This document shows, piece by piece, positions 111-6,643 of a stretch of DNA of 8,355 nucleotides (position 1 is its first letter; each line of letters begins with the position of its first letter). The stretch lies in the UHGV virus genome UHGV-0366079; one strand, given 5' to 3'. A program made the position numbers and the translations under genes. Source of the stretch: a virus. The notes under the pieces are model-generated. The model did no database searches. It had not been told where the DNA came from and saw only the letters and a program-made list of their open reading frames with translations.

Positions 111-539
111 ATGAGTAGAAATAACGAAACAAGCGGCGTTGAACTGGTTGTTGTAGGCGTATTTGCTTTCTGTCTGGCAGTTGTTGCCTGGCTAATGAAA
201 ACTTTCGATGTTGAATGGCAAACAGCACTGGAAACTGCGCCTGGCCTGATAGTCTGGCTGCTTGTTGTCGGTGCGGGGATCTTTTTCGGGATCAAAATGG
301 AAACTGGCCTTATTCGCTGGGGTGCTCCACTGGCGATCGCCCTTCTGATTCCGGTATTCAAGCCAATTCTTAAGGAAGCTGCCGGAGTTCGTGAAACGGG
401 TGGGCTGGTTTTCGATGATATGGTTTCGTGGTATGGAACTGGCTGGGGAATGTCTCTGATGTTCTTCGGGATTCTTATTGTCGGATATGGCCTGCTTTAT
501 GGTGGCACAGAAGAAATTCATATTACTGGTAATCAATAA
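111..539 (+). CDS. Hypothetical small integral membrane protein, 142 aa, about 4 predicted TM helices
   Basis: ATG at 111 with AAAGGA 8 nt upstream. Four hydrophobic stretches (about aa 12-29, 44-61, 70-84, 112-132). First gene of a tight 3-gene cluster. No family recognised. Confidence 0.6.
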   Translation: MSRNNETSGVELVVVGVFAFCLAVVAWLMKTFDVEWQTALETAPGLIVWLLVVGAGIFFGIKMETGLIRWGAPLAIALLIPVFKPILKEAAGVRETGGLVFDDMVSWYGTGWGMSLMFFGILIVGYGLLYGGTEEIHITGNQ

Positions 540-1450: not shown

Positions 1451-1684
1451 TCATTGGTCACAGACCGTAATCCACTGGCCCAGGACGTCTTTCAGGCAAT
1501 GTTGGCATAAATCCAGTTTTAAGCGATTACTGTCACCAAAAATTGAACCGTATCCAGCTAAGTGATTAACAGACAGAAACTCATTGAACTCAATGTCATC
1601 TACCACCGTCTTCGCATGGCGACCACAGCGATCGCAGGTCTTCGCACATAACATTACAGTATCGCTGGATGTGAAAAATTGCAT
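1451..1684 (-). CDS. Hypothetical small Cys-rich (putative zinc-binding) protein, 77 aa; phage cargo candidate
   Basis: ATG at 1684..1682 with strong SD GAGGAGA 5 nt upstream. Cys at 13, 17, 20 and CQHC at 61-64 suggest a zinc ribbon. Same strand as the phage genes, downstream of gIV. Confidence 0.6.
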   Translation of the reverse strand: MQFFTSSDTVMLCAKTCDRCGRHAKTVVDDIEFNEFLSVNHLAGYGSIFGDSNRLKLDLCQHCLKDVLGQWITVCDQ

Positions 1685-1755
1685 TTTATCTCCTCGTAAT
1701 GCTGCCGCGCCGAATCAGCAATAACGCTAAAAAAACAGAATTGTTCGGCTTGGCC

Positions 1756-1800
1756 AACCCCTGACACTAACAAAAGCAAGTTTTGTTAGTGTCAGGGGTT
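1756..1800. repeat. Perfect 20-bp inverted repeat with 5-nt loop (hairpin/cruciform); candidate packaging signal, origin hairpin or operator
   Basis: aacccctgacactaacaaaa (1756-1775), loop gcaag, ttttgttagtgtcaggggtt (1781-1800): exact reverse complements. Begins 2 nt after the stop of the 102-aa ORF. The minus-strand T-run lies about 20 nt beyond the stem, so it is not a classical terminator. Confidence 0.8.
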
Positions 1801-1801
1801 A

Positions 1802-2110
1802 TCATATAAACCAATAGACCGTCCTTACGCCATTCTGGTTATCAATAACATAGCCGCATTGTTTCCTTAAAAATTCTTCTGCTAAATCAATGGCTTTTAC
1901 AGAAATCTCATAAGAAGGAAGTAAAGTGTATCCTTTCCCTTCACTGGCAGCTGCTTTGATCGCATCCAGAGTATTATCAATCAGTAACAGAGCAAGTGAT
2001 GCTTCATTTACCTGAGCCGAAGAACTTCTGGCTGCAAGTGTCATTGTTTTTGCTTCTTCCGCTGTAATCGTTCGTTCTGCCAGAGCAGATAAAATCCCAT
2101 AAGAATCCAT
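1802..2110 (-). CDS. Hypothetical protein, 102 aa; phage cargo candidate directly downstream of gIV
   Basis: ATG at 2110..2108 with GGGGT about 6 nt upstream. Helical N-terminal half, beta-like C-terminus. No family recognised. Co-oriented with the phage genes. Confidence 0.55.
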   Translation of the reverse strand: MDSYGILSALAERTITAEEAKTMTLAARSSSAQVNEASLALLLIDNTLDAIKAAASEGKGYTLLPSYEISVKAIDLAEEFLRKQCGYVIDNQNGVRTVYWFI

Positions 2111-2130: not shown

Positions 2131-2190
2131 GTCCATTTGATGGATAGCGAGCAGGGCTCACGCACCTACCCGCTATCCATCAAAGTGGAC
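2131..2190 (-). terminator. Large imperfect hairpin at the gIV 3' end; candidate gIV terminator and/or packaging-signal hairpin
   Basis: Arms gtccatttgatggatagcg (2131-2149) and cgctatccatcaaagtggac (2171-2190) pair over 19 bp with one bulged nucleotide; 21-nt loop. Overlaps the gIV stop (2180-2182). In Ff phages the packaging-signal hairpin immediately follows gIV (established knowledge). Confidence 0.4.
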
Positions 2191-3445
2191 GAATGATATG
2201 TGCTGTAAGCAAAATATACATAATACGCTGTTCATTGCTGTCTGCCTTGCTACTGAAAATCCAGCCTATAAGAGGAATTTTACTTATAACTGGAACTGAA
2301 CGCTCGGCATTGCTGAACGATGAATCGATAAGCCCCCCCAATAACAACGTCTGACCATCCTTAATCTGGACTGTCGTCTGAATCTGGCGCTGATTAGTAA
2401 TAATATCGGATGCCTGATCATCATTGCTGATTGAATCAGCGCGAGTGTCGATAGTCAGAACTAGTTGCCCGTTACCCATGACAACAGGCGTTACCTTGAG
2501 AGAAACGCCAACATCATGACGCTCGATAGTCTGAAACGGATTATTTACCCCGGCAGATTCGCCCGTTACCTTTCCGGTGATAAACGGCACATTCTTACCT
2601 ACGGAAATGTAACCAGTCTGACCAGACTGAGTAAGAATACGCGGCGTTGAAATCACCTTAGAGCGTGAATTACTCTGGACAGCACGCAGAGACAGCGCCA
2701 ACACGTTACCATCAAAAATACCAAAAGAACCGCCCGCCGTAGAAAGAGCGCTACCCAGTGCAGAAGTATTAAAGCCCCCCGCAACCTTATGACCGGATGC
2801 AGAACCTGCCGCAAACGATAAATCAACGCCATCAGACAAGCTGGTTTCAAACATCAGCGACTGAATGAGAACCTGATCGCGGGCAACATCCACAGAATTG
2901 ATAAAATCGGACAGAACCGGCAGCAGCTCGTCAGGCGCAGAAACAATCAGCGAGTTATTGCCTGGATAATCCACGACATTACCACCACCATTAGAATCAA
3001 GATAAATTTTAATCAGTTGCTGAACATCGGACGATCTAACTTTTGTCAGCTTAAAATTTCTGACCGTAAGCGCCACAGGTACTGGCTGGTAAGATGGCTC
3101 AGAAGGAAAAGTATCATAAGACTGGTTATCAGAATCATCGGAATCCGAAACCATCTGTGAAGGTAATTTAGACGGCAAAGAGACTACCGCAGGATTGCCA
3201 GAAAGCATGACAAAACCGTTAGCATTCAGAACAGACTTAAAGAAATCATCAATATTTGTTGGATTAACATCAGCATTAAATACGGTTACGTTTCCTTTAA
3301 TATCAGGATTAACAATAACAGGCTTGCCAGTTTTTGAAGAATACCACTGAACAAATGAGCGAACAGATGAATTATTTAAATTAACAGTTTCAGCAGAAAC
3401 GCAGAATGAATAGGCAAATAAAAAAGCAACAATAACAGAGCGCAT
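2180..3445 (-). CDS. IV: Filamentous-phage pIV outer-membrane secretin (virion export channel)
   Basis: Start corrected to ATG 3445 (MRSVIVAFLFAYSFCVSA signal peptide) with AGGAG about 11 nt upstream; the track ORF start 3538 overlaps gI. Collinear with M13 pIV as recalled (NNS..R.FV.WYS, VPFITG.VTGESA.VNNPFQTIER, LLLGGL, SKIPLIG). 421 aa. Confidence 0.9.
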   Translation of the reverse strand: MRSVIVAFLFAYSFCVSAETVNLNNSSVRSFVQWYSSKTGKPVIVNPDIKGNVTVFNADVNPTNIDDFFKSVLNANGFVMLSGNPAVVSLPSKLPSQMVSDSDDSDNQSYDTFPSEPSYQPVPVALTVRNFKLTKVRSSDVQQLIKIYLDSNGGGNVVDYPGNNSLIVSAPDELLPVLSDFINSVDVARDQVLIQSLMFETSLSDGVDLSFAAGSASGHKVAGGFNTSALGSALSTAGGSFGIFDGNVLALSLRAVQSNSRSKVISTPRILTQSGQTGYISVGKNVPFITGKVTGESAGVNNPFQTIERHDVGVSLKVTPVVMGNGQLVLTIDTRADSISNDDQASDIITNQRQIQTTVQIKDGQTLLLGGLIDSSFSNAERSVPVISKIPLIGWIFSSKADSNEQRIMYILLTAHIIRPL

Positions 3446-4889: not shown

Positions 4890-6151
4890 CACTCACCCCC
4901 TTTGCGAAGCAATGAAGTTAAAGAAGTAAAGACATACCAGAACGTAAGGCAATAAAAAACCCATGAAAGAACATCTTTAATAGTCAGTAATTTATCGCAA
5001 CCAATATCAATCTGATAAACCTCACCGGGAAAAATAATAAAATCAGAGCAGCCGTTACCATTGGGTAAATTAGGCAGCATAGCACCTTTATTTAAAAACG
5101 CTTCCCATAAAGCACCGTGAGAATCCTTTTCAATTCCCAATTCAGAATCAGCCAAAGTAGAAGCGCCATCTAATTCAGAGTCGCCCTTTCCATAACGAGA
5201 ATCACCACCTGAAGGGTCAGCAAAACGGCCAGCCCCCCGCGTAAGATTGTTAATGGAATCGTCAAGACGATTTATATTATTCCTGGTTTGTTCATCGGCA
5301 TTTTTTTTATCATCTGATGAAGTGTCTTTCTCCGTTAATTTATCATGAATATCGCTGGCTATTTTGGGTGAAGCACCTTCGATCGCAGACTGAATATCAC
5401 CTTTAGAAAGACTGGAACCACTAGAGCCACCGCCAGAACTACCGCCAGAACTACCGCCACCGGACTCACCACCGCCAGACTCACCACCACCGGACTCACC
5501 ACCGCTGGACTCACCACCGCCAGACTCACCACCACCATTTTGGGGGGTTGAGGGTTTATCAGAGGGGTCAGCTACAGCACCTGTAGGCTTCCATGTTGCA
5601 GCGCAAACAGTACCATCACCCTGACAAACAATGACACCAGTAGCCTCATATTCACAGCCGTTATAGTAGATATAGCGACCACCATCATATGAATCAACAT
5701 TATTAAATACACCTTCTTCTGGCGGCTTCGCTTCACAAATTTCTTCTGGTGTCGGGTCAGTAGGTTTTTCATCAGGAACAGAACGCTGAATATTACCAAC
5801 AATATAAGCCGTTAAAGACCAATATTTATCCTTCTGCCCTGGTGAATCGCTGTAAGTACAATCGCCAGTAAAAACAAGACGGAATTCAGAATCAGGCCAG
5901 ATACCCTCATAAGTTGGTTTAATCCGAGTAAATACACTCTGAGCACTGGATTTAGCACCCTGACAAGCGGAGGCCTGCATAGCAGCATCAATATAGTAAA
6001 CCGTTATCTTAGAGCCATCCTGATTGGTTATTTGCTTACTTTCAGCGTAGGCAGAACTTTGATAAGTGGATTTAGTAATGCTTTCCCATGACTCAGCATG
6101 TGAAAAAGGAGAAATGAGGACAGCGGAAAGAATTAATATTTTCCTTCTCAT
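4889..6151 (-). CDS. III: Filamentous-phage pIII adsorption protein: divergent N-terminal domain, N1 (TolA-binding)-like domain, Gly-rich linker, C-terminal membrane anchor
   Basis: Start set at ATG 6151 ([19 protein letters not shown] signal peptide); the track extension to 6295 overlaps gVIII and the terminator. [26 protein letters not shown] resembles M13 N1 (YEGCLWNATGVVVCTGDETQCYGTW); GGGES repeats; C-terminus CDKL...FWYVFTSL resembles M13 CDKI...FMYVFSTF. 420 aa. Confidence 0.85.
5424..5536 (-). repeat. Tandem 15-nt repeats encoding the Gly/Ser/Glu linker (GGGES units) of pIII
   Basis: Plus strand shows iterated ggactcaccaccgcc / agactcaccaccacc units, translating on the minus strand to [39 protein letters not shown]. 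Confidence 0.8.
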
Positions 6152-6160
6152 AGTAACCCG

Positions 6161-6188
6161 CTTTAATAAAGGGGCAACGAGTGCCCCT
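6161..6188 (-). terminator. Intrinsic terminator between gVIII and gIII
   Basis: Minus strand AGGGGCA-CTCGT-TGCCCCT (7-bp GC-rich stem, 5-nt loop) followed by TTTATT, 10 nt after the gVIII stop. Ff phages carry a terminator at this position (established knowledge). Confidence 0.6.
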
Positions 6189-6197
6189 GAGTGAAAT

Positions 6198-6555: not shown

Positions 6556-6641
6556 TAACGAAAGACCCCCGCAGTAATCGCGCCGAGGCCAAAAGAAATA
6601 ACGATGCCAGACGCTATCAAAATTTGAATAACATCGTCCAT
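6555..6641 (-). CDS. VII: pVII-like minor coat protein, 28 aa (absent from the ORF track; found by hand translation)
   Basis: ATG 6641..6639 lies 2 nt after the gV-position stop; encodes MDDVIQILIASGIVISFGLGAITAGVFR, a single hydrophobic helix; stop TAA 6557..6555 overlaps the gIX start. Position and size match Ff gVII (33 aa). Confidence 0.55.
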   Translation of the reverse strand: MDDVIQILIASGIVISFGLGAITAGVFR

Positions 6642-6643
6642 AT

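Follow-up and report, generated by a model that had tools for sequence, protein, structure and literature searches.

The window analysed here is a stretch of 8,355 nucleotides (nt), the virus genome UHGV-0366079, that corresponds to one ~8.3-kb unit of a filamentous prophage of E. coli. Our subject is the interval at 1451–2110, where two small open reading frames (ORFs) lie between the secretin gene gIV and a dif-like site. The minus strand carries, in order, gII (6973–8067), gV, gVIII, gIII, gVI, gI and gIV (2180–3445), then ORF102 and finally ORF77, all co-oriented. ORF102 (1802–2110, minus strand; RefSeq WP_000378924.1) encodes 102 amino acids (aa) from an ATG start and occupies the first position after gIV. 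ORF77 (1451–1684, minus strand; RefSeq WP_001159442.1) encodes 77 aa, six of them cysteines, also from an ATG, and is the second and last gene before the phage attachment site (attP). Shine-Dalgarno sequences can be read directly upstream of both on the same strand: GAGGAGA at 1689–1695, 4 nt before the ATG of ORF77, and a weaker GGGGT at 2116–2120, 5 nt before that of ORF102. The spacer between the two genes measures 117 nt and contains a perfect 20-bp hairpin. A preliminary description of the window had listed the two co-oriented ORFs (the shorter one Cys-rich), the strong ribosome-binding site of ORF77 and hairpins flanking the genes; all of these are present, the hairpins as three strong inverted repeats. 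Its naming of gIV is likewise borne out, by the Pfam family Secretin (6.6e-43), by the PHROG family "protein IV of M13" (7.7e-153) and by 71% aa identity to IKe pIV. In what follows gIV serves as the upstream boundary of the interval and as the probable source of read-through transcription into it.

The backbone of the element has two sets of close relatives. By tblastn, aa identity to IKe is 60% for gVIII, 51% for gIII, 52% for gVI, 66% for gI and 71% for gIV; gII and gV are 86% and 94% identical to their counterparts in a YpfΦ-like prophage (L009), and only these two genes are close to it. GGGES repeats are present in g3p, and the window matches E. coli ECONIH2 (CP014667) at 99.1% over 881 nt and 99.5% over 2,000 nt. 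In one complete chromosome of E. coli, prophage copies form a tandem pair adjoining hipA and hence at the dif locus, and in these copies a perfect 28-nt dif lies 39 nt past the ORF77 stop, which substantiates the dif-like site named earlier. The element is a UPφ-type, dif-integrating inovirus of E. coli, because it combines IKe-like morphogenesis genes, YpfΦ-like gII and gV, a GGGES g3p, tandem copies at dif and near-identity to ECONIH2. The "UPφ viruses" were defined by Shapiro and Putonti (2020; Virus Evol 6:veaa030; PMC7307601), who named ECONIH2 as a lysogen. UPφ901 and the other members have the same IKe/I2-2-like morphogenesis module, YpfΦ-like gII/gV, GGGES g3p and tandem integration at dif, and they also have two genes of unknown function, h1 and h2, where IKe, I2-2 and M13 are intergenic, as well as three reverse-oriented ORFs (h3–h5) beyond dif. 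The window agrees with this group in its backbone identities, in the two co-oriented ORFs between gIV and a dif-type site and in its near-identity to a named lysogen. By position and gene order, ORF102 is h1 and ORF77 is h2; the existence of both genes is thus already published, and the observation is not new. According to the same paper h1 and h2 are common to all 229 UPφ genomes defined there, neither has a homologue, and an interaction between the two is probable. A literature search found no functional work on h1 or h2 later than that report, and tblastn of both proteins against 50,697 GenBank phage records gave no match.

Both ORFs are real genes and not chance ORFs, because they have full-length PHROG matches (phrog_4115, 2e-68, and phrog_5435, 4.5e-46, both families of unknown function), a low ratio of nonsynonymous to synonymous substitution rates (dN/dS) and intact reading frames in all 13 full-length copies, which come from independently fetched loci. 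For ORF102, dN/dS is 0.14 against a Salmonella allele with 60% aa identity and 0.077 over the conserved C-terminal two-thirds; for ORF77 it is 0.075 against a plasmid-borne homologue with 71% aa identity, and 0.11–0.25 among closely related Klebsiella alleles. Both genes are under purifying selection. At shorter range, 48 complete E. coli genomes hold most of the 2-kb stretch from ORF77 to gIV, each at 99.4% identity or more. On the contrary view the ORFs are not genes, and the interval is a structured non-coding stretch that, like its counterparts in Ff and IKe, holds the packaging signal and the origins. This view could appeal to the strong conserved hairpins at both ends of ORF102 and to the homology of the gIV-end hairpin with the IKe morphogenetic signal (see below). 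It is almost certainly wrong: dN/dS is far below 1 at 60–71% aa identity, the ORF77 family comprises 1,656 clusters with invariant cysteines and motif residues, the AF2 fold of ORF77 is confident, and the hairpins sit between the ORFs, none of them inside.

The first of these hairpins (2131–2190, minus strand) spans the gIV stop codon, with a DNA folding energy of -24.8 kcal/mol and z = -9.2 relative to shuffles. It has a core, GGGTAGGTGCG..AGCCCTGC, in common with a stem-loop of IKe (feature 6141–6196; blastn 72% over 75 nt, E 3.7e-5), which also overlaps the gIV stop and is annotated in the IKe record as "pot. transcription termination, morphogenetic signal". A Salmonella relative keeps the hairpin with a compensated A-T to C-G change. 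The hairpin is the homologue of the IKe packaging signal, and with the shared IKe core and the compensated change it is probably the packaging signal of this phage. The order gIV then packaging signal is the same in both phages, and it is after this point that they differ: in the IKe record the two origins, minus- and plus-strand, come straight after the morphogenetic signal without any coding sequence, whereas in the window the cargo ORFs lie downstream of the gIV-end hairpin, and what is inserted before gII amounts to 0.7 kb of coding cargo, attP and four genes in reverse orientation (h3–h5 and a small regulator). The earlier statement that relatives are non-coding here holds for IKe, which we checked directly, and for I2-2 and M13 according to PMC7307601, all of them non-integrating phages.

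The second hairpin (1756–1800, minus strand), a perfect 20-bp stem beginning 1 nt past the ORF102 stop, is of similar strength (-22.2 kcal/mol, z = -9.4). In the Salmonella alleles a hairpin is kept at this position, with several changes spread over the two arms, and a conserved GGTTGRCCARGCC...T-run follows it. Candidate roles are a transcript end or stabiliser, or a single-stranded DNA element such as a minus-strand origin. No Rfam family came near its gathering score on the hairpins, and across 1250–2350 neither a sigma-70-like promoter nor a canonical intrinsic terminator was found. Both ORFs are inferred to be expressed by read-through from gIV, since there is no promoter-like site upstream of them and the hairpin at the end of gIV lacks a U-tract.

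The third inverted repeat (1333–1392) lies within the attachment region (1318–1412), which bounds the interval on its distal side and holds two inverted dif-like XerC/XerD sites. Site one, at 1318–1344, reads GGTTCGCACAA-TGACG-TTATGCTAAAG; site two, the reverse complement of 1381–1412, reads GGTGCGCATAA-TGTACGACTCG-TTATGTTGAA; and the arms of both pair within the inverted repeat. This arrangement is that of the folded single-strand attP of the CTXφ type, as has been proposed for YpfΦ (PMC4266046). A part of this region (1320–1389, i.e., the first dif-like site and the GC-rich hairpin without the second site) is also found at ~93% identity in ~440 plasmids, mostly conjugative IncF; in pAPEC-O1-ColBM the counterpart directly follows a gene of the STM4504/CBY_0614 family. 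These plasmid copies could be a plasmid Xer site or the relic of an integrated element.

The interval from gIV to attP is a recombinationally mosaic slot with two cargo positions. Among 42 loci tabulated, position 1 is filled by an ORF102 allele or by a gene for an unrelated, very basic 82-aa protein, and position 2 by ORF77, by a 65-aa gene or by nothing; these occupants are combined in nearly every way with gIV, of which there are two types, and with the regulator, of which there are at least four. Several comparisons illustrate the exchange. In Salmonella prophages whose gIV is 94% identical (L002–L004), the ORF102 allele (60% aa identity) is followed by ~400 nt of unrelated sequence up to dif, and ORF77 is absent from these relatives even by tblastn. 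The E. coli relatives that are closest in backbone (gIV 93–94% identical in aa, 85–88% in nt) carry the 82-aa gene directly after gIV, and the same gene (82–83% identical), followed by the unrelated 65-aa gene, fills the slot of YpfΦ-like prophages with a different secretin. The 82-aa protein starts MSVKSR.RDRLP.GRLKSYRRVGSHF... and is encoded at 6606–6854 in both L105 and L106, at 4628–4876 in L009 and also in L108–L126; prophages of both the UPφ-like and the YpfΦ-like kind carry it, and Pfam gave no match. The intergenic genes are thus cargo, as first suggested, in the sense that close relatives carry different, unrelated genes there or none. It was also considered whether the position-1 gene tracks the repressor type, as in a repressor/anti-repressor pair; this fitted four phages and was contradicted by L028/L029 and L125.

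Within the slot the two genes are separable. ORF102 occurs without ORF77 in five loci (L002–L004, L028 and L029), and relatives of ORF77 occur without ORF102 at ~80 loci, among them Klebsiella inoviruses and L033/L034, where they directly follow gIV, and a large plasmid-like contig (ParM/StbA, YubE, DNA methyltransferase) with a 71%-identical homologue. Between the window and the Salmonella phage, the synonymous divergence (dS) is 1.8 for ORF102 and 0.37 for gIV and gI. The G+C content at third codon positions (GC3) is 0.28 for ORF102, 0.47 for ORF77 and 0.25–0.38 for the backbone: ORF102 is backbone-like in composition and ORF77 is foreign. ORF102 and ORF77 are separable, independently acquired cassettes: each occurs without the other, and their histories differ, the dS of ORF102 exceeding that of both backbone genes compared between these phages and the GC3 values being unlike.

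These observations bear on the preliminary description's suggestion of a functional pair, either toxin and antitoxin or regulator and effector. If the two stabilised the prophage as a type II toxin-antitoxin pair, or as regulator and effector, this would agree with the interaction suggested in PMC7307601, and several features invite it: the genes are small, adjacent and co-oriented, they are always together within the UPφ lineage, the C-terminal part of ORF102 is weakly winged-helix-like, and some distant members of the ORF77 family (P0110, P0083, P0101) carry a C-terminal toxin-binding domain of Xre/MbcA/ParS antitoxins. The evidence from separability runs the other way. Each gene is found without its partner in natural elements, and in such single-gene elements a toxin needing the other gene could not persist. 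Typical toxin-antitoxin operons overlap or abut, whereas here 117 nt with a perfect 20-bp hairpin intervene; GC3 and divergence history differ between the genes; the ORF77 family has no conserved neighbour; and no model of a toxin, an antitoxin or a defence protein in Pfam, NCBIfam or PADLOC matches either protein (nothing at all for ORF102 in PADLOC, and for ORF77 only an insignificant Cas8b match, E 0.023), nor does a sequence in PDB. The tight operon, the co-occurrence as a unit and the recognised family membership that mark type II systems are all lacking, and we regard such a pair as very unlikely; the suggestion of a functional pair was not upheld.

ORF77 itself belongs to a large family. 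The protein is acidic (8.7 kDa, pI 5.4), with a CxxC...CxxC arrangement and the conserved motif GYGSxFGDG...LDLCQHC. With a family profile built from six homologues, 1,656 clusters were recovered at E <= 0.01. In 88 aligned family sequences C20, C60, C63, E35, F49, D51 and Q61 are invariant and C17, G44, S47, G50, H62 and W71 are at least 90% conserved, with Ser replacing C17 in one sub-lineage (P0018); the family signature is CDRC...EFxEF...GYGSxFGDG...LDLCQHC...LGxW. In the AF2 model, strands 14–16 and 23–25 flank the first CxxC and helix 61–68 begins at the second, so that the protein has the four ligands of a treble clef, a CxxC knuckle plus a CxxC at the N-terminus of a helix. ORF77 is accordingly best described as a predicted treble-clef-like zinc finger of a large uncurated family. 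The zinc binding claimed for it earlier is plausible from the conserved cysteines and the treble-clef-like model, and metal binding itself stays a prediction of that model. Similar features (the CxxC knuckle, a second CxxC at the start of a C-terminal helix, a size of ~8 kDa and carriage by phages or plasmids) are found in Lar and in the N-terminal domain of MqsA, treble-clef or zinc-ribbon proteins of mobile elements. A search of the ORF77 sequence against PDB gave nothing significant.

The family is spread over very different mobile elements. In at least three inovirus lineages its gene is the last after gIV, 39–213 nt from a perfect dif (39 nt in the window lineage, 172–213 nt in the Klebsiella lineage). 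It also occurs on 6.5-kb Rep3 plasmids of Proteus and Providencia, alongside SIR2 and ParE genes; in tailed-phage contigs, adjoining DNA methyltransferase genes or what is, by its sequence, a probable large terminase; in a mobile AIPR cassette of Klebsiella; at a locus with Hachiman, Fic and TacA genes; and, commonly, in environmental metagenomic viral contigs unrelated to pathogens. One relative overlaps a 322-aa gene of unknown function, and the two neighbours of ~320 aa that accompany relatives in chromosomal contexts are unrelated to each other. Fusions place the ORF77 domain N-terminal to an Xre/MbcA/ParS toxin-binding domain (P0110, P0083, P0101) or to DUF4926. Clustering of 1,426 neighbouring ORFs across ~100 loci gave no conserved partner; the recurring neighbours were inovirus gIV/gI, a DNA methyltransferase (7 loci) and a probable large terminase (6 loci), and Pfam scans of ten family neighbours were empty.

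Some features of individual family members were noted in passing. Five longer proteins (P0114, P0092, P0127, P0095 and P0103) have a common motif after the domain, ...D/GFD...HGGEFPN.... In one Klebsiella lysogen (L016, 6232–8753), 2.5 kb with DUF6904 and helix-turn-helix (HTH) transposase-like genes lie between the ORF77 homologue and dif, and the DUF6904/HTH pair recurs near the AIPR-ORF77 cassette (L133, 9459–10091); this segment may be a second element stacked at dif.

The position of the gene beside dif raises the question of whether ORF77 assists XerCD recombination at the adjacent attachment site as an accessory factor, controlling integration or excision, a role that we presume would be like that of XafT of Vibrio phage TLCφ. 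That an ORF77-family gene is the last before dif in at least three inovirus lineages speaks for this, as does the dif/cer-like site that the Rep3 plasmids with ORF77 relatives also have. Most family members, however, have no dif-like site nearby (those in tailed-phage contigs, in defence islands and on the large plasmid), and an ORF77 homologue is missing from Salmonella relatives of UPφ and from YpfΦ-like phages, which integrate at dif all the same. ORF77 is moreover acidic and showed no similarity to XafT-type HTH proteins in family searches, and proximity to attP is expected of any cargo, as with ctxAB in CTXφ. A general link between ORF77 and Xer was rejected after a scan for dif-like sites had found them beside ORF77 homologues in inoviruses only and not in the other contexts, and for ORF77 in the window we hold such a role to be quite improbable.

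ORF102 differs from ORF77 in having next to no relatives. It is acidic (11 kDa, pI 4.7); its first 35 residues vary between alleles, and the C-terminal part is conserved and predicted to form helix-strand-helix-strand-strand. Apart from the 60%-identical Salmonella allele it is a lineage-restricted orphan: the only remote match is P0135 (E 5.6e-6), the sequence gave nothing significant against PDB, and a fold search against BFVD returned only uncharacterised proteins (E > 0.006). The profile and structure searches called for in the preliminary description thus placed ORF77 in a large zinc-finger family and left ORF102 an orphan, with no family of known function for either. The C-terminal part weakly resembles winged-helix DNA-binding domains. 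ORF102 might also be a small transcriptional regulator or anti-repressor, with a role like that of RstC of the RS1 satellite, acting with the divergent repressor next to gII; we consider this unlikely. Homology of ORF102 to gII was also considered, many gII fragments being present in its 90% cluster, and was rejected: the cluster had been chained through a chimeric protein, P0005. On a 3.5-kb contig of Citrobacter youngae, P0005 joins residues 1–43 of gII to residues 35–102 of ORF102, which implies either a mini-prophage, i.e., a deletion derivative that has lost all of the structural module, or an artefact of assembly.

Taken together, the evidence is best explained, in our judgement with a fair degree of probability, by two real and independent accessory genes, not a toxin-antitoxin pair, that occupy a two-position cargo slot between the packaging-signal hairpin and the XerCD site. 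Both would be translated from the gIV read-through transcript and would be dispensable for virion production, because IKe does without both genes and relatives swap them. As small acidic proteins, presumably cytoplasmic (neither translation contains a hydrophobic segment or signal peptide, with a grand average of hydropathy of ~0), h1 and h2 most likely act by binding other proteins. The likeliest setting would be a conflict of phage with host or of one element with another, e.g., counter-defence or superinfection exclusion; such a role is favoured because the ORF77 family recurs in accessory regions of many mobile elements and beside defence genes. One could go further and see in the ORF77 family stand-alone counter-defence or defence-modulating factors exchanged among filamentous and tailed phages, small and conjugative plasmids and defence-island cassettes, in ORF102 a lineage-private equivalent and in the slot an "anti-defence island" comparable to the leading regions of plasmids; this more specific version is possible, if rather unlikely.

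Several points weigh against the picture of independent cargo genes with a role in conflict. The conflict or counter-defence role is a best guess drawn from genomic neighbourhood, protein size and charge, and no conserved partner or target was found for it. Within the UPφ lineage h1 and h2 are always together (in 48 E. coli genomes here and in the 229 of PMC7307601), which leaves room for a lineage-specific interaction. As for the presumed co-transcription with gIV, the gIV-end hairpin may terminate most transcripts, as its IKe equivalent is annotated to do.

The comparison with CTXφ invites another reading, in which the ORFs encode a host-directed virulence factor, the positional analogue of ctxAB. 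The likeness is real as far as arrangement goes: ctxAB too are accessory genes at the distal end of a morphogenesis and secretion module by an XerCD site, and the CTXφ attP likewise contains a pair of inverted dif-like sites. UPφ and related phages are, in addition, enriched in extraintestinal and urinary isolates (PMC7307601). There is, however, no likeness in sequence, fold or signal peptide, the window proteins being small, acidic and apparently cytoplasmic; neither has a signal peptide, a hydrophobic segment or a toxin family match; relatives of ORF77 abound in viral contigs from environmental metagenomes that have no connection with pathogens; and UPφ showed no association with patient outcome (PMC7307601). 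A virulence factor is for these reasons extremely unlikely.

The nearest published parallel is in YpfΦ and CUS-1. YPO2280a and YPO2281 of YpfΦ and their CUS-1 homologues are two ORFs of unknown function next to attR (Derbise and Carniel, 2014; PMC4266046), and as in the window they are small, follow the secretin gene and lie beside the att of a dif-integrating enterobacterial inovirus with the same gII/gV module. They are apparently not homologous to ORF102 and ORF77: YpfΦ-like prophages (L009, L010, L113–L122) carry the 82-aa basic and 65-aa proteins, which we infer to be YPO2280a and YPO2281. An identification of ORF102 and ORF77 with YPO2280a and YPO2281 was accordingly rejected, only gII and gV being in common and the slot of YpfΦ-like prophages holding the unrelated 82-aa and 65-aa genes.

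The finding reveals no new kind of system. Where the UPφ paper (PMC7307601) reported no homologues and suggested an interaction, the present analysis has h2 in a large, predicted zinc-finger family, h1 as an orphan and the two genes as separable; what it adds is this separability, the mosaic make-up of the slot, the large family to which h2 belongs and the packaging-signal homology of the flanking hairpin. It follows from the mosaic of independent cassettes that h1 and h2 are to be considered singly and not as a pair, and h2 becomes a representative of a family of more than 1,600 clusters across mobile elements, not a phage-specific orphan. Extraintestinal E. coli, Salmonella, Klebsiella and pandemic Y. 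pestis commonly carry UPφ, YpfΦ and CUS-1 prophages, and genes adjacent to att are obvious candidates for an effect on host fitness, as ctxAB are in CTXφ.

Other parts of the element yielded minor observations. Beyond dif, on the plus strand, a 91-aa ORF (561–836; h4 by position) encodes a protein with a CxxC...CxxC pattern. It scores 65 bits against the NCBIfam model "ECs_2282 family putative zinc-binding protein", above the cut-off of 37, and has weak Lar-like and PADLOC PDC-S64 matches; it would be a second small zinc-finger cargo protein of the phage, unrelated to ORF77. The h3 position (111–539, plus strand) holds a multi-pass membrane protein of 140–142 aa that is also encoded in L009 (2432–2854) and L106 (13545–13967). 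This protein is 98–99% identical across phages that differ in regulators, slot genes and structural modules, which points to very recent exchange or to strong constraint. A hairpin at 50–85 on the plus strand, the strand opposite to gII–gIV, was spotted by eye (ACGTGCAGT...ACTGCACGT, then TCTTTATTG); we take it to resemble the nick-site context of the Ff plus strand.

Two of the matching records stand out. One contig (L019; JARKOR010000214.1), binned as "Candidatus Nanosynbacter", carries this enterobacterial phage with an ORF102 identity of 100% and is almost certainly a misbinned contig of a metagenome-assembled genome; a scan of genome contigs yielded this one alone, with neither Y. pestis nor a species representative. 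In the chromosome of E. coli EC5502 (NZ_CP092647.1) the ORF region is matched at 16–17 separate places, the median in other genomes being 1–2, which suggests an unusually long tandem array or multiple insertions.

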